From IMG/VR virus record IMGVR_UViG_3300022218_000004, positions 1 through 42,129 of that record: a stretch of DNA of 42,129 bases; one strand, given 5' to 3'. Shown one piece after another: positions 2,207-42,129 of this stretch. Both the position numbers and the translations under genes were made by a program. This DNA is from a virus. Lineage: Duplodnaviria; Caudoviricetes. Each line of letters starts with the position of its first letter. Positions within the stretch are counted from its first letter, which is position 1. Under the pieces are notes generated by a model. It made no database searches, was not told where the DNA came from, and worked only from the letters and a program-made list of their open reading frames with translations.

Positions 2207-4158
2207 GCGCACTCGAACCGGATCCCAATGAACCTGTCGACGTATGGGCGGAAAAGCGCTTTCACCTTCCCGCAAGCTCAGAGATTCAAGGGCTGATTGA
2301 TCTATCCTACAGCCCACATATCATCCAGCCACTTAGGGACCTATCCCCACAAAGCCCGGTCAGGGTTGTTTATTTGGTATGCGGGACTCAAGTGGCCAAG
2401 TCAACTATGAATTTAGTGTTGATTGCCTACCGTATTGACTGCAAAATCAGGGGGCCTGTGCTGGCCATGCACGCCGTGAAAGGTATGGCCACAGATTGGG
2501 CAAAGGATGAGCTTGCCGGAACCATTGCAGCGAACAAATATATTTCGGACGTTCTTCATAGAGCCAAGAAAGGGGATGACAATCACCTCTTTAAAAAGTG
2601 GCCATGGGGCTCATTGATTGTCAGGGGCGGAGATAGCGGAACTTCTTACGCAAAAATATCAGCATCCCTTCTATTGATCGATGATATTGACAGATTTAAA
2701 ATGAATATCGGCGGAACCACTTCCGGAAAACACAAAGACAGGAAAATCGGTGAGGGCTCGCCTTTGGAGTTGCTATTTGATAGGGTTTCAGGTAGATTTG
2801 GAAACTATAAAATATTTGTGAACTCTTCGCCAAGGGCGGAGGGTGAAAGTATTATTTGGCCGGCTTATGAATCAGCGGATCAAAATCATTTTTATGTGAA
2901 GTGCCCACGGTGCGGCCATTATCAAACATGGGAATTTGAAAACCTAAAATTCAAGCACAAAGACTTCACTCTCACAGAAGAGCCCTACATTCTTTGTCAG
3001 AATACCGACTGTCAGAAAGTTGCAACCGGCCCAGGATTCAAGGCAAAAGAAAAACCCCGGGTTTACGAAGATGACAAATACAGGGTTATGCAGAACTGGG
3101 AGTATAGGCCTCATTCAGAAAGTATTGACCCACTATCAAAAAGCTACCGTGTTTCAAGTCTTTACTCCATGCTCGGTTATCCATTCTCACAGTACGCAAC
3201 CGACTGGTTGTCAGCGGACAAGGCATTTAAAGAGCTCGGCGACGAGGCCAAAAAGATCAGGCACCGAAACACTAAACAAGCAATGCCATGGAAACGCAAA
3301 GCAGGAAAAAAAATCCAACACTCAGCCCTTTTTAAAACTATGGAAAATTTGGATCCACTACCAGAAGACTGCGTCATTTTGAGTTGCGGTTTTGATGTTC
3401 AGGAAAACCCCGGAAGGATCGAGGGGCAGGTCAACGGATACGGGCCAAACAATGACAGGTTTTTGATTGATCACAGGATTTTCGGCGGGGATCCCAAAAT
3501 TAAACCAGGTCTTGAGGGAAGCCCCTGGAATGATGTTGCCGACTTTCTCCTGACAAAGCGTTACCGCAATTCATGGGGGCAGGATCAGCCGATTTATTGC
3601 GCTGCAATTGACATAGGGTGGGGAAAAGAAGAGGCATGGATTAAGTATTTTATTCAGAACTTTGAGCCTTTGAACCTGGGAAACATGTATCAGCCTATTT
3701 TTGGAGTGTTTGGAAAGGAAATCACCAAAGGATCAATTAATTTCATGAGCCGAACAGCAACCCAGGACGTTGACGGATTCGAAACATGGGGGATGTATTC
3801 GAATATCAAAAGGGTAGCAATTCGGAACCTTTTGGAAAAACATATTGAGAATAAACAGGCCGGCAATGAAAGCAACTTACATATCGGAAACAAGCCATGT
3901 TTCACAGAGGATTTTTTCAGACAATTGACGATCAGGCAGCCAGATGAAAAGGGGATCATGGTCAAGCCATACGACCACGCCAGAGACGAGCCGGAAAGCT
4001 GCATGTTTATCGCTGACGCCGCCTTTATTCTTTCATTCAAAGACTATGAATTTGGTATTGATTGGGATGATTTTAAAAAATGGAATAGCGAAGGAATCAA
4101 CGACGGAACCAGCGGAAAAAAGGCAAAACGTGTGATTAGTAGGGGTATACAAGTTTAG
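2170..4158 (+). CDS. terL: Terminase large subunit (lambda GpA family); frame open from 2170, no canonical start before the conserved N-terminus
   Basis: LEPDPNEPVDVWAEKRFHL..G..YSPHI N-terminal motif; Walker A-like TQVAKST; Walker B-like LLLIDDID; CPRCGHYQ; nuclease motif GFDVQ. Confidence 0.92.
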   Translation, partial: KKTFTTFDRVNLSALEPDPNEPVDVWAEKRFHLPASSEIQGLIDLSYSPHIIQPLRDLSPQSPVRVVYLVCGTQVAKSTMNLVLIAYRIDCKIRGPVLAMHAVKGMATDWAKDELAGTIAANKYISDVLHRAKKGDDNHLFKKWPWGSLIVRGGDSGTSYAKISASLLLIDDIDRFKMNIGGTTSGKHKDRKIGEGSPLELLFDRVSGRFGNYKIFVNSSPRAEGESIIWPAYESADQNHFYVKCPRCGHYQTWEFENLKFKHKDFTLTEEPYILCQNTDCQKVATGPGFKAKEKPRVYEDDKYRVMQNWEYRPHSESIDPLSKSYRVSSLYSMLGYPFSQYATDWLSADKAFKELGDEAKKIRHRNTKQAMPWKRKAGKKIQHSALFKTMENLDPLPEDCVILSCGFDVQENPGRIEGQVNGYGPNNDRFLIDHRIFGGDPKIKPGLEGSPWNDVADFLLTKRYRNSWGQDQPIYCAAIDIGWGKEEAWIKYFIQNFEPLNLGNMYQPIFGVFGKEITKGSINFMSRTATQDVDGFETWGMYSNIKRVAIRNLLEKHIENKQAGNESNLHIGNKPCFTEDFFRQLTIRQPDEKGIMVKPYDHARDEPESCMFIADAAFILSFKDYEFGIDWDDFKKWNSEGINDGTSGKKAKRVISRGIQV

Positions 4159-4296: not shown

Positions 4297-4746
4297 ATGC
4301 CTGATGTATTCACAAATAACGGAAATGCAGCTTTAGACAATATTGCATTGTTCCGAAAAATCGCACACCTTGATTTAAAAATCAGCTTCAAAAATGATCA
4401 AGGCAAGCTGAAATCACGAACCGCTTTAAAATCTATTCTCTTTGTCCTGGCTACGTTCAGGAATAACACAACTTCACAGTGCAACCCTGATACTAGAACC
4501 ATTGCGGATCTTGCTGGTTGCTCAAGGGATACCGTTAACCGATCTCTGAACACTTTGATTGAACACGGTATTTTGATAAAAATATCATCCCCGGTCGGTA
4601 GCAATGTTAAAAATAAGTATTATTTCTGTTTAGATATGCCAGACTTGATTGGAATATTTGAAGATGACGAACACGAAATACATAATACTCCCGAGGGTGA
4701 AAGTGTTGAGGAGGCAATTGAAATTTATAGATCCCATGTCTTATAG
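4297..4746 (+). CDS. Winged-helix (HTH_36-like) DNA-binding protein, replication-initiator-like N-terminal domain
   Basis: KSILFVLATFRN...CNPDTRTIADLAGCSRDTVNRSLNTLIEHGIL...N.Y. Confidence 0.8.
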   Translation: MPDVFTNNGNAALDNIALFRKIAHLDLKISFKNDQGKLKSRTALKSILFVLATFRNNTTSQCNPDTRTIADLAGCSRDTVNRSLNTLIEHGILIKISSPVGSNVKNKYYFCLDMPDLIGIFEDDEHEIHNTPEGESVEEAIEIYRSHVL

Positions 4747-4860
4747 TAAGACACCGGTGTCTTATGGTGCGTCCCTTCATGTCTTATAGTAAGACATGCT
4801 CGTGTCTTATGGTAAGACACTAACAAGTAATAAACAAATAAAAGAACAAATAAATTGAAT
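4737..4860. repeat. Palindromic iteron-like array followed by an A-rich tract
   Basis: TGTCTTAT(A/G)GTAAGACA at 4737, 4780 and 4803, half site at 4758; then AACAAGTAATAAACAAATAAAAGAACAAATAAA. Confidence 0.85.
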
Positions 4861-28917: not shown

Positions 28918-29109
28918 ATGTCACAAAAGACAATCAAGGTTCATGCTGATTTGTCGAAAGAATACATGTATAACACGGCAATCGAAAACGGTCTGTCTGA
29001 AAAGGCCGCCGATTATTTCAAGTATTTTAATGAGGTCGAAGTTACTTTGACCGTTAATCAAGAAACAGGCGAAGTTTTAAGCGCCGAAGGTCCAGGAGAA
29101 TACACATGA
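28918..29109 (+). CDS. Hypothetical protein
   Basis: AAGGAG RBS; overlaps the recT start. Confidence 0.65.
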   Translation: MSQKTIKVHADLSKEYMYNTAIENGLSEKAADYFKYFNEVEVTLTVNQETGEVLSAEGPGEYT

Positions 29110-29939
29110 GCAAAGCATTACAAAAAAACCCAGTCAGCACATTGAAAGAAATCGTTAGCGCCGAATCAGTCAAGAAACGCCTCGACGATGTATGGGGCGA
29201 TAACGCCGGGGCCTTTGCGGTTTCCATCATTGATTTATACTCATCAGACACATATCTTCAAGGCTGCGACCCTGGGTTAGTTGTCGCGGAATGCATGAAG
29301 GCCGCAAGCCTGAAACTTGCCGTTACCAAGTCACTCGGACAGGCTTATGTTGTCCCTTTCAAAAACAAAGGGGTTCTGACTCCGACCTTTATTTTGGGGT
29401 ATCGAGGCATGATTCAACTGGCTTTAAGGTCAAATCAATTTCAGGTTTTGAACGCCGACGTAGTTTATAAAGGCGAGATAGTCGAAGTTGATCGGCTTTC
29501 AGGGTCCGTTAAAATATCAGGCACCAAAACAAGTGACAAGCCAATTGGCTATTTTGCTCACATGGTATTGACAAACGGTTTCACAAAAACGATTTACTGG
29601 ACGCATGGCGAAGTTATCGCCCACGCGAAAAAGTACTCGAAGTCATTTAATAATAAATCGAGCGCGTGGACGACAAACACGCCTGATATGTGCATCAAAA
29701 CCGTCGTTCGTCAGTTGCTTGGAAAGTGGGCACCTATGTCCATCGATTTTATCGGCGGCGAAGGTGACGACGAAATCCAGCCGGATCCGATTGACATCAC
29801 ACCGGATGAGCCCGAAAAGCCAAAGGCCAAAAAGCAACTGAAGCCGGAGCCGAAAAAGGACGACAAAGGGAACGAGATAATTGATGTTGATCCAGAAACC
29901 GGGAAACCGGAAGAGGGCGAAGAGCCTGACCCTTATTAA
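29106..29939 (+). CDS. recT: RecT-family single-strand annealing recombinase
   Basis: LGQAYVVPF, FILGYRGMIQLALRS, IGYFAH, W.T..PDMCIKTVVRQLL.KWAPMS. Confidence 0.93.
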   Translation: MSKALQKNPVSTLKEIVSAESVKKRLDDVWGDNAGAFAVSIIDLYSSDTYLQGCDPGLVVAECMKAASLKLAVTKSLGQAYVVPFKNKGVLTPTFILGYRGMIQLALRSNQFQVLNADVVYKGEIVEVDRLSGSVKISGTKTSDKPIGYFAHMVLTNGFTKTIYWTHGEVIAHAKKYSKSFNNKSSAWTTNTPDMCIKTVVRQLLGKWAPMSIDFIGGEGDDEIQPDPIDITPDEPEKPKAKKQLKPEPKKDDKGNEIIDVDPETGKPEEGEEPDPY

Positions 29940-30666: not shown

Positions 30667-31383
30667 ATGAATATAATTTCGATAAACTCAAGCTCAGAGG
30701 GAAACGCCCACTTAATAGAGAGTGGGGGTTTCCATCTCCTTTTAGATTGCGGCGTCCCTCTATCCAGAATCAGAGAGGCGCTCGACTATAAGCTTGAAAA
30801 TGTGGTCGGGTGTTTGGTGAGTCATTTACATGGTGATCATGCAAGCGGGTTGCCTCAACTGGAAAGGGAAACTTCGATTCCTATTTATTGCACTGAAGGC
30901 ACCTTAAAACGATTTGAATTGTCTGGAAGGTATCAGCGCATAGATCATAAAGTTGTTTTTAATTGTGGCCCTGAATTTCAGGTAGTACCGTTCGAATTAG
31001 AACACGACAAAGAGCCGTTTTGTGAATGTTTTGGTTTTATGGTCTGCAACAGGACACGGCAAAGATATCAAAAGCGGTTGCTTTATATTACAGACGCCGG
31101 TTTTGTTCCAGAAAATTACCGGTTCCCTCATATCCATTACTTAATGATCGAAGCAAACTACTCCTTTGACCGCCTTGTCGATTCAGAAGTCAATGCGGCG
31201 GCCAGGAAAAGGATTGCAGAAACGCACCTTTCAATTTCGCAGGTCTGTGAGTTCGTCTCAAGACATCCTGATCTTAAAGAGATACACCTTTTACATTTAT
31301 CTGATGGGCATAGCGACGCTATGGAGTTTAAAAGGATGGTGCAAGATATCGCTGCGGTGCCTGTTTATATTGCGGGGAAATGA
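30667..31383 (+). CDS. Metallo-beta-lactamase-fold nuclease
   Basis: SSSEGN, LLDCG, SHLHGDH, YITD, IEANY, HLS, LLHLS. Confidence 0.92.
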   Translation: MNIISINSSSEGNAHLIESGGFHLLLDCGVPLSRIREALDYKLENVVGCLVSHLHGDHASGLPQLERETSIPIYCTEGTLKRFELSGRYQRIDHKVVFNCGPEFQVVPFELEHDKEPFCECFGFMVCNRTRQRYQKRLLYITDAGFVPENYRFPHIHYLMIEANYSFDRLVDSEVNAAARKRIAETHLSISQVCEFVSRHPDLKEIHLLHLSDGHSDAMEFKRMVQDIAAVPVYIAGK

Positions 31384-35994: not shown

Positions 35995-36027
35995 CCGCCC
36001 ATTTACCAAAATCGATTAAAAAAACGC

Positions 36028-36060
36028 CGTTTTCAACCACGTTTTCAACCACGTTTTCAC
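36028..36060. repeat. 12-bp tandem repeat CGTTTTCAACCA (~2.8 copies)
   Basis: Units start at 36028, 36040 and 36052. Confidence 0.8.
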
Positions 36061-36187
36061 CATATTCGGCCATGAATCAGCCAGAATCAAATACACATAT
36101 CAAAATCGATTATTGTTCGATTATGGACGATAGGCTCGGGGCTCAATGTTTTAGGGGGTTTGAGGGTTATTTATTTTTGTTTGTTTT

Positions 36188-36203
36188 TGGCATGGAAAGC
36201 GCA
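36188..36203 (+). promoter_or_regulatory. Putative sigma54 (-24/-12) promoter
   Basis: TGGCATGGAAAGCGCA: GG at 36189-36190 and GC at 36201-36202, the canonical spacing. Confidence 0.55.
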
Positions 36204-36264
36204 ATAGTCCCTTGGTAAGACGGTTCAATCAGAACCCGAATAACTCAAACGAGGAGAAAACAAG

Positions 36265-36663
36265 ATGAACGAACTCATAAAACAAAATCTAAAAAACAAC
36301 GCAATCGCTGATTTTCTTGGAATGAACTGGACGCAATTAAAAGCCACGAACAAAGGAGCTGGAAAAGTTGCGGGCGTCATGACTCCGAGTGGCGATATTT
36401 TTATCATAAAGATTCAGTCGGAACTTGAAAGAATGAAGCCAGAAAGCGACGTTGTAACTCATTTTCATCATGGGTGGCACTGGTTTCAAATTGAGAGAGT
36501 AAGGCGATTATGGGAAGTCTGGAAAGACGACTTTAATAAAAAAGAACAATGGAAAGTAAAATTCCCAAACGGCTTGATTGGGTTCAGAACAAAAAAACAA
36601 GCCATTCAGGTTTCAAGGGATTGGGAAGAGGCTGAAAATAAAAAAATGTCAGCGACAAACTAA
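36265..36663 (+). CDS. Hypothetical protein
   Basis: GAGGAG RBS; 132 aa. Confidence 0.7.
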   Translation: MNELIKQNLKNNAIADFLGMNWTQLKATNKGAGKVAGVMTPSGDIFIIKIQSELERMKPESDVVTHFHHGWHWFQIERVRRLWEVWKDDFNKKEQWKVKFPNGLIGFRTKKQAIQVSRDWEEAENKKMSATN

Positions 36664-37056
36664 TCACATAGCCGGGGCAGCCCGGCACAACCACACCACA
36701 AAATGAAAAAACTCACTCTTTTAATGAAAAACTTCGACACAAAGCCGGAGCCCATCAAGATCCCGCCCGGCACTTATTCGGCTGCAAAATTTGCAAAACT
36801 TTATCCAATGGAGTACAAAAGACTCGTAAGGGCAGGAATGCCCCACGCGGTTAATTCTCTCATAACGATCAGATGACTGAGAACAAACAATTCTGGAAAC
36901 AGGTCGAAAAAGAGCAACAGGCGCTTGAGATATACAGGGAGAAAGCGCAGAAAAGGCGGTTTCAAGCTGATCCCGTTCGTTGCTCTAATTGTGGCACAGG
37001 CGTCGAACCTGGCGAGCTTTGCCCTTCATGTAAGAAACTCAATCGAGGTTAAAGCC

Positions 37057-37251
37057 ATGAAAAATAATAAAAGAAACTACAAAAGAAAAAACAACGCATT
37101 TGTGTTAGATCAAGACTATATCGATTCAGCCGTTGAAGAGTTTTTGAACAATGGCGGCCAGATAACCAGAATCGAATTTGTTGAAAAATCAGAAGCGGAG
37201 ATTTACGCCGATAAATATTGCGGAGCTGACGAATTTTTGATGGGGAATTGA
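37057..37251 (+). CDS. SutA-RBD-like small protein, copy 2
   Basis: GAGG RBS before ATG 37057; DQDYIDSAVEEFLNNGGQITRIE. Confidence 0.65.
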   Translation: MKNNKRNYKRKNNAFVLDQDYIDSAVEEFLNNGGQITRIEFVEKSEAEIYADKYCGADEFLMGN

Positions 37252-37523
37252 TGAAAGTAATCCTTTTAATTATTGTTATCTCCTTGGCCGCCTTGCTTAT
37301 TCCAATGCAAATAGAACTTGAACAACTGCAGGAATTAGCAGCAGAAAACAAAGTCAGGCTTGATGATTATAAAATGCACTCGAAAGAGCCTTGCATGTCT
37401 TTACCTGATAGTGCGAAGTGTTGGGATAAGACTGTCCATTTCCGGATGCCTGGCGGGTCACTTCGAAAGGAATTAAGGCGGATTTGTGCATTTACATCGC
37501 CTAATGCGCAGGTATGGGAATGA
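37248..37523 (+). CDS. Small membrane-anchored/secreted protein
   Basis: Hydrophobic N-terminus. Confidence 0.55.
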   Translation: MMKVILLIIVISLAALLIPMQIELEQLQELAAENKVRLDDYKMHSKEPCMSLPDSAKCWDKTVHFRMPGGSLRKELRRICAFTSPNAQVWE

Positions 37524-37525
37524 CA

Positions 37526-37553
37526 TGTGAACATAATGTAAATTATAACCACA
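37526..37553 (+). other. dif-like tyrosine recombinase site 1 (11-6-11)
   Basis: TGTGAACATAA-TGTAAA-TTATAACCACA versus E. coli dif GGTGCGCATAA-TGTATA-TTATGTTAAAT. Confidence 0.65.
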
Positions 37554-37566
37554 CTTGGAGAGAAAG

Positions 37567-37710
37567 ATGGAAGAATTAACAAGCCTTAAAGAGATTGCAG
37601 ATTATATGCGAAATAAGGCGCAAGAAATTGGAGATGCTTATCTTCTGGAGTCACTAAAATTACTACAAGCCGCTGATATTCTCGACCCAAATGAAAGTGT
37701 CGAATCTTAA
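37567..37710 (+). CDS. 47-aa cargo gene between the dif-like sites
   Basis: GGAG RBS; MEELTSLKEIADYMRNKAQEIGDAYLLESLKLLQAADILDPNESVES*. Confidence 0.65.
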   Translation: MEELTSLKEIADYMRNKAQEIGDAYLLESLKLLQAADILDPNESVES

Positions 37711-37715
37711 CCAAG

Positions 37716-37743
37716 TGTGGTTATAATAAACCTTATCAACACA
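37716..37743 (-). other. dif-like site 2, inverted relative to site 1
   Basis: Minus strand reads TGTGTTGATAA-GGTTTA-TTATAACCACA followed by the same CTTGG flank. Confidence 0.65.
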
Positions 37744-37750
37744 ACAAAAA

Positions 37751-37978
37751 ATGAACTGTGAAACCTGCCCGACAAAAGACTTTGTTCATGCTGATCTATA
37801 CTGCCAAGGATGCAAAGAAAATCCGACAGTCACCGGCATTGCTTACTTGTTTCAGAAAGACAAATCAGAGCCCAGGGGGTCGGTATCAATTGAAGCGCCC
37901 GAGGGTCAAGAATATTTATATGCAGCTCATGAGTTAATGCAGAAATATAAAATTGAATTTATAGGGGATGAGGGATGA
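37751..37978 (+). CDS. Small Cys-rich protein
   Basis: CETCP...CQGC. Confidence 0.55.
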   Translation: MNCETCPTKDFVHADLYCQGCKENPTVTGIAYLFQKDKSEPRGSVSIEAPEGQEYLYAAHELMQKYKIEFIGDEG

Positions 37979-38196
37979 GCAAAGAATACAAACTTGCTAA
38001 AAGTGTTGTTGTGAATTACAGAGAAATAAAACAATATATTAGCGAATACAGATGCCCGCGTTGTAAAACAATAATAATAGGCGGTGGAATCAGCGAGAAT
38101 GTGACAAGATTCAATTGCCAGCATTGCAAAAGCCCGCTGATAGTTTCAGAACATGCGTACAATCCAAATTTTGAAAAGCTGAAAGGTAAGGTATAA
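37975..38196 (+). CDS. Zn-ribbon protein
   Basis: CPRC...CQHC. Confidence 0.6.
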   Translation: MSKEYKLAKSVVVNYREIKQYISEYRCPRCKTIIIGGGISENVTRFNCQHCKSPLIVSEHAYNPNFEKLKGKV

Positions 38197-38197
38197 A

Positions 38198-38416
38198 ATG
38201 AAAACCCTAATCAAAAAAGTCCGCGAAATAGACGAAGCCGCGGCCAATTACATCGAATCGGAAGTTTTGCCACGTTGGGAAGTTATTCCATGATCAATTG
38301 AAAAGGTTGAAAAGTTTTCCTTGTCTGATCAGCTTTCAACTTTTATTATCTGGTCAGAGACGCCGCAGGGTAATACTTATTGGCGGGATATTTATTTAAA
38401 ACTTAAGGGGGGTTGA
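38198..38416 (+). pseudogene. Small phage protein (W..TPQG..YW motif) interrupted by an in-frame TGA
   Basis: MKTLIKKVREIDEAAANYIESEVLPRWEVIP*SIEKVEKFSLSDQLSTFIIWSETPQGNTYWRDIYLKLKGG*; internal stop at 38291-38293. Confidence 0.55.
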
Positions 38417-38805
38417 TGCAGACAATCGAACAACAGACAGGATGGTCAAGAGGTTATCCAAAGATGATTTGTCAAAATGTTGATGTTCTATCGGCTGTCA
38501 ATGATTACTCATTTGATGTTAATAACCACGAATTTATTGAGTATTTCAGGTGCAGAACTGGTATTGTTTGGGATGACCACAAGGTATTTTTAACAACGTC
38601 AGATCAAGCCGAACACTGGTTACTAAACAGCCCTGATTTTAGATATATGGCATCTCAAGAGCCTGTCGAGTTTGGGCATGCCAGAGATCAAGAGGTCTTT
38701 TTGAATAGAATTTTAAAGGGCAAGCTGCAGGATTGTTGGGAGCTTTTTATCACTGTTGAAAATTCAACATGGAAACATAAATATATTAATCTTATGGAGA
38801 ACTAA
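38413..38805 (+). CDS. Hypothetical protein
   Basis: 130-aa ORF coupled to the previous stop. Confidence 0.6.
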   Translation: MMQTIEQQTGWSRGYPKMICQNVDVLSAVNDYSFDVNNHEFIEYFRCRTGIVWDDHKVFLTTSDQAEHWLLNSPDFRYMASQEPVEFGHARDQEVFLNRILKGKLQDCWELFITVENSTWKHKYINLMEN

Positions 38806-38807
38806 AA

Positions 38808-39443
38808 ATGGCGTCCGTAAATGTGATTGATGTTTCAAAAATAACAAGGGACCTTTTGGTGATTCAAAAAAGGATCGACAAAGCCGAGGATGTTGCCACA
38901 ACCAGGGCCTTGAATATTATTTTGAACAAAGAAGAAAAGCGGATTTCCGCCGAAATCTCCAAGGAGTACGGAATCAGCCAAGCCAGCGTCAGAGCAAAAA
39001 TCAAGAAACGAAAGGCCACTAAAACAAATAAGCTCATTGCCTTGAATTTTAGGTCACTCCGGGCCAACGTTATCAGCCCGCGACAGCTTAAAAAAGGGAT
39101 CTCATTCAGGAAAAAAGGCGGTGGCCGCATTAAGATTACGACTCGGGTTACGGCTGGATCCTCAAAGCCATTTATGATCAATGCGAAAGCTGGCGGGTAC
39201 ACTGGCGGGGCAAACATTAAAGTTCCAGGCGGAAATAAAAAGATTCCTGTTTATATTGGGAAGAGAGAAAACCCCAAAAGAGGCCCGGCCAGAAAAGTGA
39301 CAACCATGAAAGGATCGAGTATCCCGCACATGGCCGCAGCTCTGCAGATTCAAAATAACAGGCTTGAAAATGCCGTTCGCCGGGATTTTCCTGGGGAATA
39401 TCGAAATCAATTAAAAAAGGCTCGATTTACCGGGAGGTTTTAA
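38808..39443 (+). CDS. Lambda gpZ-like tail completion protein, displaced from the tail module
   Basis: ATTRALN...ISKEYGISQASVRAKIK..KAT...PFM...GSSIPHM; very basic. Confidence 0.65.
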   Translation: MASVNVIDVSKITRDLLVIQKRIDKAEDVATTRALNIILNKEEKRISAEISKEYGISQASVRAKIKKRKATKTNKLIALNFRSLRANVISPRQLKKGISFRKKGGGRIKITTRVTAGSSKPFMINAKAGGYTGGANIKVPGGNKKIPVYIGKRENPKRGPARKVTTMKGSSIPHMAAALQIQNNRLENAVRRDFPGEYRNQLKKARFTGRF

Positions 39444-39583
39444 AATGGATTACAAACTATATTTATTTTGCTTAATCGCTTTTATTATTGGCAGGGCATC
39501 AAAAGGCTTCAATATTTACATTGGCCCTGACGCCGAAAAATACGAAAATGCAACGATAGGAATTCAAACAAGGAGTAAACAAA

Positions 39584-39886
39584 ATGGCTGAAGAAACCCC
39601 AAAAGAAGCACAACCGGAACCAGTACAACAGAACCTATCCGAAATCGTTGGAAGGCTGGTTGAAGCTCATGAACTGTCAAAAACCGCTACAAAGTACACT
39701 CGGGGAAGCGCTGATTCTCCTGTGAATATCGTAAGCGGATCAAGTGCAAAACCGAATCCGACTCTTTATCAATACATTCAAAAAGCTGAAAAAATCGTTA
39801 TCCAGGAAATGCAACAGTTGATTATTGATAAGGCTCGGGGCTTGATCGGGATTGAGCTGGATAAAATACGGGGGATGGTGGGATGA
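39584..39886 (+). CDS. Hypothetical protein
   Basis: AAGGAG RBS. Confidence 0.65.
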   Translation: MAEETPKEAQPEPVQQNLSEIVGRLVEAHELSKTATKYTRGSADSPVNIVSGSSAKPNPTLYQYIQKAEKIVIQEMQQLIIDKARGLIGIELDKIRGMVG

Positions 39887-40203
39887 AAATAAAACTCAGG
39901 GCATGGGATAAGACAGAAAACAGAATGATAGAATGGGATGATTTTGACGACTATCCATGGCTGTATGATATCCTGTCACAGATAAAATACAATTCTGATT
40001 CTGTTGAATTTCTTCTATTCACCGGCATCAAAGATAAAAATGGCGTGGAGATTTACGAGGGGGATATTATCTTTATTCCGTATAATAGGCTTGGACATCA
40101 TGCTGTTGTGTTCAAAAATGGTAAGTTTTCTGCGACTAATTTTGACATTAAGCAAATCGAAGTAAAAGGCAACATCCACCAAAACCCGGAGCTATTAAAA
40201 TGA
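39883..40203 (+). CDS. YopX family protein
   Basis: IKLRAWDK, FTGIKDKNGVEIYEGDI, EVKGNIHQNPELL. Confidence 0.93.
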   Translation: MKIKLRAWDKTENRMIEWDDFDDYPWLYDILSQIKYNSDSVEFLLFTGIKDKNGVEIYEGDIIFIPYNRLGHHAVVFKNGKFSATNFDIKQIEVKGNIHQNPELLK

Positions 40204-40534
40204 AAAAATGCAGATGCGGTGCCGAAATGGTGCAACTTGAAACAGAAAACAATGTAATTAAAACCTACGTTTGCCCTAAATGCAGGGTGCTTGATAATTA
40301 TTTCGAGAAAGGGCCGTTGGAGGCTTTGCTTGAAAAGGCTGTGAAGGTGGGGGAAAATGGAAGAGCTTAATTTTACGACTGAGCCAACATTATCAAGAGT
40401 TGTTTGCGAAATTGAAAAACAAAGAGAATGGTTTCGTAAAAACGTAATCGGCCCACTATTTATTGAACCGGTATATAGAGAATGGGTTGCTCTTGTAATC
40501 TATCAACGGCCTTTTCGCCATATGTGGGAATAAT

Positions 40535-40726
40535 ATGAAAGCAACCTGTAAATTCTGCAAAAGAGAGATCGAGCTCGAAACCTGGGCGCCAATGACACAA
40601 GGTTATGTCTGTGGCGAATGTCAAGTCAGGTTTGAGGGGTCATTTTTACGGCATCTTATTCAGAAACGGATTGAGAGAAAGGAGATTGAGAAGGATGGGA
40701 AACGAATGGAAGGTATGCACACTTGA
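40535..40726 (+). CDS. Small Zn-finger protein
   Basis: CKFC...CGEC. Confidence 0.5.
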   Translation: MKATCKFCKREIELETWAPMTQGYVCGECQVRFEGSFLRHLIQKRIERKEIEKDGKRMEGMHT

Positions 40727-41120
40727 TCAGGCTAAGCGGTTGGTTGGGTTGGGGGTTGTGTTGGATACGTCACAATTTTGGGTATGTGCCGGAGGACACT
40801 GGCAACTTGGTATGGGTAAAGGTTTTCTCAATGAGTTAGGTCCGGCAATAATTCCAGCCCCTGACGTTGCAGAGCTTGGTGTTTTGTTGCCTCAATTCAT
40901 AACAGTCGGGATGAATGAGCATGGCGGGATAAAGATTCCTGATATGTATTTTGTAAAGTTCTCACATGGAAAAGGAATATTTTTCTGCAATTACGGGAAA
41001 ATAGCTGGCAACAACACAATTTGCGAATTTGATGGAGAAACAGAAGCGCAAGCCCGTTGCGCTGCATTGATCTGGCTGATTGAGAGCGGGCATTTAAAAG
41101 CTGAAGATATTAAGCTGTGA
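40605..41120 (+). CDS. Phage hypothetical protein (real start probably MGNEWKVC)
   Basis: VCTLDQAKRL..LG, PAPDVAELGVLLP, TEAQARCAALIWLIE pattern. Confidence 0.7.
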   Translation: MSVANVKSGLRGHFYGILFRNGLRERRLRRMGNEWKVCTLDQAKRLVGLGVVLDTSQFWVCAGGHWQLGMGKGFLNELGPAIIPAPDVAELGVLLPQFITVGMNEHGGIKIPDMYFVKFSHGKGIFFCNYGKIAGNNTICEFDGETEAQARCAALIWLIESGHLKAEDIKL

Positions 41121-41125
41121 ATATG

Positions 41126-41191
41126 TGGGGCGGTGGCGTTGTCATCGGTGAAGGCTGCCAGCGAAAGCAAAAGCACAAACGCGCCGCTCCA
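41126..41191 (+). ncRNA. Candidate structured intergenic RNA
   Basis: 14-bp closing stem TGGGGCGGT-G-GCGTT / AACGC-GCCGCTCCA enclosing GCGAAAGC. Confidence 0.4.
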
Positions 41192-41208
41192 TTAACTAAG
41201 GGGGAATT

Positions 41209-41469
41209 GTGGGAATGACAGTTAATAAACTCTATAAAGAGTTAGGTAAATTGATTGCAAATGGTGATGGACGAAAGTTAGTTGAGGTACACAAAGCAAC
41301 CTTTCATCACCCATTGGAATCGGACGGTTGCGTGATTATACCACTTGAGTCCATCGGGATTGATACATTCAATATCATTGATGACAATGGCGGGCACGCT
41401 GAAAATAAGGACGGTAGCGAAAGACTAAGGACATCATGCGTTCTATATGGAGGTAATACAGATGAATAA
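41209..41469 (+). CDS. Hypothetical protein
   Basis: AAGGGGG RBS; MTVNKLYKELGKLI. Confidence 0.65.
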   Translation: MGMTVNKLYKELGKLIANGDGRKLVEVHKATFHHPLESDGCVIIPLESIGIDTFNIIDDNGGHAENKDGSERLRTSCVLYGGNTDE

Positions 41470-41776
41470 GGAAAAGATTAAACAGGAATTGCAAGAGAAG
41501 TATCCAGGCATGACACCGGCGGTTATTGCTATGGTTAATATAATGCTTGATGCAATTGAGTTGAGCAGGCAGGATGATTGGATGTGTGAGGGTGGAGTTA
41601 TTAGGCATGGTAGCGGGTACACAGTACAGGTGCATAGCGGTAGCTTGGTTGTGTGTCCTGAGTGTGGGGGCAAGGGGCAGGTACACGGCAAAGATGGGTC
41701 AGGGCTGGCCGTGTACTGTGACAGGTGTAACGGGTACGGCTCTGTTAAGGCTGAATGTAATACTCCATCTGCATAG
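41447..41776 (+). CDS. Protein with a DnaJ-type CxxCxGxG zinc finger
   Basis: CPECGGKG...CDRCNGYG. Confidence 0.7.
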   Translation: MEVIQMNKEKIKQELQEKYPGMTPAVIAMVNIMLDAIELSRQDDWMCEGGVIRHGSGYTVQVHSGSLVVCPECGGKGQVHGKDGSGLAVYCDRCNGYGSVKAECNTPSA

Positions 41777-41801
41777 GTGGGTAATCTATTGGGGTAATGC
41801 T

Positions 41802-41993
41802 ATGAGAAAGACACACTATCAAGCGCCATGGGTTGATAAGCCAGAGAGCAGGGCGGTATGCAATGAGATTGTTAATCATCTAACTACGTCCATCTATACC
41901 GATAAGGTGGACTGCAAGCGGTGCCTTAAGATAATGGCTACGTACAAAGGCAGGCGCAAGCGTCCCGGGCTACTGCGTAGGCTGTTTGGGTAA
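41802..41993 (+). CDS. Small protein with a CKRC motif
   Basis: GGGG RBS; MRKTHY...C...VDCKRCLK. Confidence 0.5.
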   Translation: MRKTHYQAPWVDKPESRAVCNEIVNHLTTSIYTDKVDCKRCLKIMATYKGRRKRPGLLRRLFG

Positions 41994-42088
41994 TAGTGCT
42001 GTGGCTTGTGGATGCCTTGTGTTAGGGGGTAGGCGCATGATGTTTGTTATTTGATAGGTAGTCTATCGGGCTGTAAGTCAATGGTGGC

Positions 42089-42129
42089 GGGTCCTCTGAG
42101 GGGTTTGGGTGCCCGTTATGGAGCGACTG
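42089..42129 (+). other. cosQ-like heptamer plus the right copy of the terminal duplication
   Basis: GGGTCCT at 42089-42095, 25 nt before GAGCGACTG. Confidence 0.7.

Follow-up and report, generated by a model that had tools for sequence, protein, structure and literature searches.

Why should a tailed phage that encodes no integrase carry two inverted, dif-shaped palindromes with a single small gene between them? The window analysed here, G000, spans an entire virus record of 42,129 bases, which CheckV rates as 100% complete. Its gene set includes a terminase and a portal of the lambda type, a tape measure protein, RecT, an SbcC-like ATPase and a primase-helicase. All long ORFs of the window lie on one strand, and small unassigned ORFs form a run from about 36,000 to 42,000. 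The features on which the question turns are as follows.

29106..29939, + strand: RecT single-strand annealing protein, a homology-dependent recombinase (PF03837, E 2.7e-36), absent from the preliminary description of this DNA
37251..37523, + strand: upstream 90-aa ORF, a singleton cluster, whose stop ends 2 nt before W1
37520..37531, + strand: orphan start that reads MTCE into W1 and overlaps the upstream stop; repeated directly, at 10/12 positions, in 37751-37762, where the 75-aa gene begins
37526..37553, no strand: site W1, 11-6-11, core TGTAAA, of the form TGTG-N3-ATAA-N6-TTAT-N3-CACA with zero mismatches; the conserved arm is the right one, toward the cargo gene
37542..37558, + strand: left copy of a 17-bp perfect inverted repeat, consisting of the last core base, the conserved arm and the 5-bp extension CTTGG
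37567..37710, + strand: 47-aa orphan ORF (the cargo), starting 13 nt after W1 and stopping 5 nt before W2
37711..37727, - strand: right copy of the 17-bp perfect inverted repeat, pairing with 37542..37558
37716..37743, no strand: site W2, 11-6-11, core TAAACC, of the same form TGTG-N3-ATAA-N6-TTAT-N3-CACA with zero mismatches; the conserved arm is the left one, toward the cargo gene
37751..37978, + strand: downstream 75-aa cysteine-rich protein of a small family, starting 7 nt after W2

The full site sequences are TGTGAACATAA TGTAAA TTATAACCACA for W1 and TGTGGTTATAA TAAACC TTATCAACACA for W2. The preliminary description had claimed a perfect 17-bp inverted repeat, two 28-bp 11-6-11 sites containing its copies and an exact fit of the 47-aa gene between them, and each of these observations holds: the repeat is perfect, neither site departs from the form, the GGAG ribosome-binding motif of the gene overlaps the end of the left repeat, and its stop adjoins the right repeat. 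Its count of 18 matches in 28 positions between W1 and the E. coli dif site is likewise reproduced with the sequence in the accessible table of PMC3025954, and rises to 19/28 when W1 is read backwards. Further, its statement that no recombinase is encoded is borne out for site-specific enzymes, as no tyrosine or serine recombinase was found among the 63 ORFs of the window with Pfam and PHROGs, and six-frame searches of the window with PF00589 and PF00239 gave no match, the control genomes being positive in 14/14 and 12/14 cases. The same 63 ORFs, searched with the same two collections, include neither a partition protein nor a clear repressor.

A scan of the window allowing up to two mismatches to the pattern returns W1 and W2 only, and two such matches were seen in 0 of 100 shuffles (mean 0.01). 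On its own, the occurrence somewhere in the window of a perfectly inverted 17-mer pair is less unusual (6 of 100 shuffles), and the signal therefore rests on the two-site form. Simpler identities for these elements were considered and rejected: transposon ends (TG...CA with a 3-bp repeat), given that each end is palindromic by itself and recurs singly; an RNA hairpin, in the case of the window sites, given that the middle three bases of the arms are unpaired; and promoter -10 elements, given the missing -35 partner and the many sites oriented against transcription. No promoter or terminator call, including any sigma-70-type promoter, overlaps W1 or W2.

The enclosed gene has a GC3 of 0.25, as against 0.35-0.41 in three neighbours. 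A search for relatives of its 47-aa product returned one candidate, the protein itself; Atlas scores were 0.75, and no Pfam or PHROG family was assigned to it; loci of the 75-aa neighbour were sought in viral contigs and none was found. Directly upstream of the locus, the ORF at 37057-37251 has a weak match to the SutA RNA-polymerase-binding domain (E 7e-5, below the cut-off; Atlas 0.85). Elsewhere in the window, a gene for a gpZ-like tail-completion protein (38808-39443) belongs to the accessory region and is separated by about 25 kb from the remaining head-tail genes, and a metallo-beta-lactamase-fold protein (30667-31383) shows a weak match, below the cut-off, to the anti-Pycsar protein Apyc1. 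An HTH_36 gene (4297-4746) is grouped with HNH and Dam methylase genes between the terminase and head genes, and an internally palindromic 19-nt repeat, operator- or iteron-like, occurs in three copies at its end (4735-4819). Nine bases are common to both ends of the record (1-9 and 42121-42129) and may represent the cohesive end of the lambda-type terminase.

W1 and W2 are members of a family of Xer/dif-shaped palindromes which recurs in dissimilar phages. A pattern scan of viral contigs yielded 44 loci, from which long perfect hairpins, a match at a contig end (G008), matches inside ORFs and a second symmetric family were excluded. Pairs of what we take to be DnaA-box-like elements among these loci were also left out of the counts. 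The second symmetric family comprises 11-6-11 palindromes whose arms end in GACACA and which occur once each in G003, G005, G007, G009 and G011 (L006, L011, L022, L033 and L041), several of them at gene junctions. Additionally, a set of related viral contigs (L008, L016-L018, L020, L027, L028, L030, L032, L034 and L043) carries a perfect palindrome of about 50 bp that matches the pattern and is possibly a hairpin end or cruciform. A metagenome scan gave seven loci, of which one was the window's own contig and four (L104, L105, L106 and L109) were treated as chance, as were, in other scans, most of 48 loci and 25 of 26 loci which had one good arm only.

The richest array is in G001, a 52.6-kb record of a myovirus-like phage with baseplate and sheath-type structural genes, in which four full sites and a half site are confined to 2 kb, with none elsewhere in the record. 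YopX is the only protein that it shares with the window, and W2 is 82% identical over 50 nt to a G001 site with its flank. Two of the G001 sites (G001a and G001b) lie 6 bp apart with their conserved arms inward, which is the W1/W2 arrangement without cargo. A Tad2-like anti-defence gene is found among the head genes of the same phage (L100:5382-5594). In L103, a contig of 1,456 bases, three full sites and a decayed fourth are each placed between small genes, and the three full sites all point in one direction. L107, a bacterial-looking contig, has at 2893-2920 a site whose arms are exactly those of W1, followed by a ribosome-binding site, within a small island of short genes between an EamA gene and an amidohydrolase gene; a decayed second copy at about 3260-3290 is one gene upstream, and the pair brackets an 84-aa gene. 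The two arms of W1 thus occur with other cores in L107 and also in L099 (discussed below), and G024 has a single site with a decayed left arm.

A fully symmetric form, TGTGTGTATAA N6 TTATACACACA, is present once or twice each in G002, G004, G006, G010 and G012. It may be separate from the window form, and was pooled with it because the CTTGG extension is common to both, following the sites of G002, G004 and G012, and because the L103 array holds both arm types. With the family in hand, the 17-bp inverted repeat of the window is therefore explained as the conserved arm and its usual extension, present once per orientation. The inverted pair is not a general rule, because each site is near-palindromic and the three full sites of L103 share one orientation. 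All 17 full sites in the alignment carry ATAA-N6-TTAT without deviation, and a profile built with one record left out in turn recovers the sites with 0-1 control matches per record. In one tally, 19 of 20 site-bearing records held a single site. PF00589 was found in 0 of 13 site-bearing records, five of which are at least 90% complete. Two further phages, G175 and G176, were examined for sites and had none. G175 (L180), a complete 36.7-kb phage and the closest relative of the window by capsid (88%), has 11 proteins in common with it, no site and a different accessory region; its portal, protease and capsid are 71-90% identical to those of the window and most of its other genes are unrelated, constituting a sharp mosaic.

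The position of the sites relative to genes was examined with a strict junction test, which required a stop upstream and a start within 40 nt and which rejected any position enclosed by a long frame on either strand. Of 18 selected sites, 11 passed, as compared with 1.0-4.5% of 600 random positions per record in eight records; this figure is biased upward because the 18 sites were chosen by the analyst. The distance from the site end to the start codon is 7-16 nt in 10 of the 18. In the related phages G002, G004 and G012 the site sits between the YopX and SSB genes, and together with a few flanking bases it forms a 54-61-bp island of similarity, the genes on either side being non-matching; the cores of G002 and G012 (AATCAA and AATGAA) are retained. 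Similarly, one site of G001 (G001e) and one of L103 (L103c) are 92.5% identical over 40 nt and agree fully in the core, and have different genes on both sides. Hence, in both sets, a conserved element lies between otherwise unrelated genes. A YopX gene (39883-40203 in the window) is located within about 2 kb of sites in five records, namely the window, G001, G002, G004 and G012, which may be coincidence because YopX is common in such regions.

The preliminary description had proposed to look in related phages for the same arms around different cargo or as an empty single site. Sites do recur at junctions with differing neighbours; a second context for the 47-aa gene was not found, and no empty allele of its locus was obtained at the DNA level. 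At the protein level there is a hint of one. P0132, a 92% identical relative of the 75-aa protein, begins MTCETC, in agreement with the orphan start that reads MTCE into W1, and might represent an allele without the site-gene-site unit, a correspondence noticed after the fact. Among 11 aligned members of the 75-aa family, the start methionine is followed by N-C in five, including that of the window, and by T-C in two, and the N-to-T difference at the start of P0132 could be a point change. If P0132 is indeed an empty allele, the junction would fall in the 12-bp repeat, outside the cores, and would therefore suit RecT-mediated homology better than Xer.

The arms and cores set limits on what the sites could do. 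The conserved arm matches the E. coli XerD arm at 5-6 of 11 positions; the other arm of W1 reaches at best 8/11 (read backwards) and that of W2 5/11. By this comparison of letters, no arm is a canonical XerD arm. In the accessible part of the published dif table (PMC3025954), all five occurrences of CCACA are in cores and none is in an arm. The cores of W1 and W2 match at 2/6 positions in direct and 3/6 in inverted alignment, and inversion or excision of the 47-aa cassette is therefore unlikely. Across the 136 pairs of 17 sites, one pair of cores is identical (reached by 16% of column shuffles) and six match in at least 5/6 positions (shuffle mean 2.7; 4.3% of shuffles reach six). Core sharing is accordingly weak, and common descent alone would be expected to give the same.

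A scan of 185,579 species genomes with the exact pattern, a strict one with the outer bases fixed, gave two matches (L098 and L099), neither of them clade-wide. Of 151 genomes from the family to which one of these belongs, seven had a match, similar to the control count and hence at background. The match in L099 (4001-4028, a Sulfurimonas MAG) is viewed as chance or a local element because its family shows such background counts; it has the arms of W1 and lies in an island about 900 bp from genes for a Xer-like tyrosine recombinase and a HerA-like ATPase. Thus, a chromosomal dif site with these arms was found neither in the exact-pattern scan of the 185,579 genomes nor in the accessible published dif table (PMC3025954). 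Assignment by proteins gave no host either, the primase matches being 31-35% identical. A few SAR324 names among the relatives of the G012 SSB and deltaproteobacterial names among the relatives of one L107 protein are weak hints that the host lineage of the site-bearing phages may be SAR324 or related deltaproteobacteria.

These results bear unequally on the proposals made in the preliminary description. Integration at a host dif, or through a CTX-like attP, is not supported, there being no chromosomal dif with these arms in the genomes scanned; and matching of the arms to chromosomal dif sites, put forward there as a route to the host, pointed to neither a host dif nor a host Xer. Its suggestion of gene cassettes shuffled by host Xer proteins survives in part: the sites do look like dif, the phage has no site-specific recombinase that could be found, and the link to variable accessory genes remains, whereas inversion or excision of the 47-aa cassette by W1 and W2 is unlikely.

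A mechanism that could reconcile these observations may be framed with reference to plasmid dif modules. In the accessible text of PMC11705084, the ATAA-core-TTAT motif determines XerC/D binding and cutting, sites flanking genes on plasmids do not excise their cargo, and plasmid-to-plasmid recombination takes place only between closely related cores. With this rule, the dissimilar cores of W1 and W2 would preclude inversion or excision, but would permit exchange with matching sites elsewhere. The favoured reading, on which our confidence is evenly divided, is that the sites at accessory-gene junctions are crossover points through which two phage genomes present in the same cell exchange DNA by means of a tyrosine recombinase of the host. 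An Xer-type enzyme, presumably supplied by the host, would bind the two arms, and strand exchange would require closely matching 6-bp cores, as in the Acinetobacter plasmid sites. Between W1 and W2 themselves there would be no recombination, but each could recombine with a matching site on another phage genome; a single crossover would leave a mosaic, and a pair of crossovers would substitute the enclosed gene. The exact ATAA-N6-TTAT form, the recurrence and junction placement of the sites, the turnover of genes around a retained site and the lack of PF00589 in the site-bearing records speak for this reading. Speaking against it are the non-canonical arms, the weak sharing of cores, the prevalence of single-site records, the failure to find a host dif, a host Xer or a second context for the 47-aa gene, the absence of sites from G175 and the hint from P0132. 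A wider version is offered tentatively: phages of different virion types infecting one host lineage might carry addressed joints for an Xer-like enzyme with a new, near-symmetric, CACA-ended target, the core serving as the address, and might thereby trade single genes across families in what would be a dif-module system of lytic tailed phages.

The geometry and placement of the sites also admit other explanations. Operators of a dimeric DNA-binding regulator, of host or phage origin, that tune or block the downstream accessory genes in the manner of mycobacteriophage stoperators, an alternative already named in the preliminary description, are a less likely candidate, under which the sites would survive gene turnover because the regulation itself is selected. 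Operators typically have palindromic arms around a free centre, which counts in favour of this possibility, as do the location of 10/18 site ends 7-16 nt ahead of a start codon and the fact that cores seldom match. The fully symmetric arms of the G002 group, which contain a 9-mer that may resemble a DnaA box, count in the same direction. However, neither window site overlaps a sigma-70-type promoter, and no candidate regulator is common to the window and G001, G002, G004, G010 and G012, the sole shared protein being YopX, with two of them. Moreover, dif sites have precisely this ATAA-N6-TTAT geometry, and the 6-bp spacing of G001a and G001b, with no gene between them, is unneeded for regulation. 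Stoperators themselves, in the accessible portion of PMC9283540, are numerous and bind a monomeric repressor on asymmetric DNA.

Boundary homology is in our view improbable: here, 40-60 bp of shared sequence would let RecT (in the window) or ERF (in G001) exchange the flanking genes in a PeSL-like fashion, the palindrome being kept for some other binding function. The window and G001 do encode RecT and ERF, respectively, the shared islands reach past the 28 bp into the flank and ribosome-binding site, and the 10/12 direct repeat at 37520/37751, considered alongside P0132, suggests that the complete site-gene-site unit was gained or lost at short homology. Nevertheless, P0132 is known from protein and its N-to-T difference could be a point change, the sites are without the promoter-terminator anatomy of PeSLs, and the combination of fixed arms and variable cores is left unexplained; indeed, variable cores are at odds with this account because homology would favour conserved ones. 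A low probability is given to an attachment site at the host dif (IMEX, with a CTX-like hairpin) or a dimer-resolution site of a circular episome. The missing integrase, the long stem that W1 and W2 can form by pairing within a single strand (z -3.5), the several complete phages with exactly one site and the bacterial-looking L107 with the W1 arms in a small island of short genes all speak for it. Yet, there were only two matches in 185,579 species genomes and background counts in the 151-genome family check, the window has no partition protein or clear repressor and its long ORFs are all on one strand, and arrays of 3-5 sites with different cores are needed for neither job. Further, the IMEX phages described in the accessible text of PMC12715192 are non-tailed.

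Exchange between phage genomes at matching cores, if correct, would have consequences beyond this locus. The usual account of phage mosaicism invokes illegitimate or short-homology recombination. If accessory genes were separated by defined joints of recombinase-site form, distant phages would have a site-specific route of gene exchange; the biology of dif modules would then reach beyond plasmids into tailed phages, and an Xer-type enzyme whose target has yet to be described would be implied. With sites of 28 bp and a sharp prediction, namely that only matching cores recombine, the claim lends itself to direct testing. In the accessible literature, no account of sites like these in a tailed phage was found, and the arm sequences gave unrelated primer matches only, among the matches listed.

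Among known systems, the stoperators (accessible parts of PMC9283540) resemble the present sites in being protein-binding sites within phage operons, a role that is putative here. They are asymmetric, numerous and bound by a phage repressor, whereas the sites described here are palindromic and number 1-5 per record with no shared phage regulator found; the window itself has two near-palindromic sites in 42 kb and no clear repressor. The PeSL elements of T4-like phages, proposed in the accessible text of PMC4122927 as short-homology boundaries of gene exchange, are similarly short conserved elements between variable small genes that mark exchange points. Unlike W1 and W2, which match neither a promoter nor a terminator, PeSLs are promoter-terminator composites, and the present sites instead combine the geometry of a recombinase site with variable cores. 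The IMEX phages (CTXphi, TLCphi and the dif-type double jelly-roll phages; accessible text of PMC12715192) share the want of an integrase, the dif-like sites and the two inverted sites foldable into a stem. In contrast to them, the carrier here is a tailed dsDNA phage, the sites recur as arrays at gene junctions, and an attP-like match to a chromosomal dif was not found in 185,579 genomes with the strict exact pattern.

The pdif/xrs modules of Acinetobacter plasmids (PMC11705084 and bioRxiv 10.1101/2022.01.12.475240, as far as their accessible text goes) offer the closest parallel: 28-bp 11-6-11 ATAA-N6-TTAT sites flank accessory genes, are often inverted and differ in their cores, no recombinase is encoded by the element, and exchange is proposed between molecules at matching cores. 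A gene flanked by two inverted sites is likewise present in the window, the sites of L103 being direct. The differences are that the carriers are tailed phages, that each arm terminates in CACA and is neither canonical for XerD nor close to it, that many of the sites are fully symmetric, and that it is the sites, not the modules, which are common to different phages, no module having been seen in two contexts. On account of the XerD arm the sites are therefore not filed as members of the pdif class, which is nonetheless the known system that they work most like.
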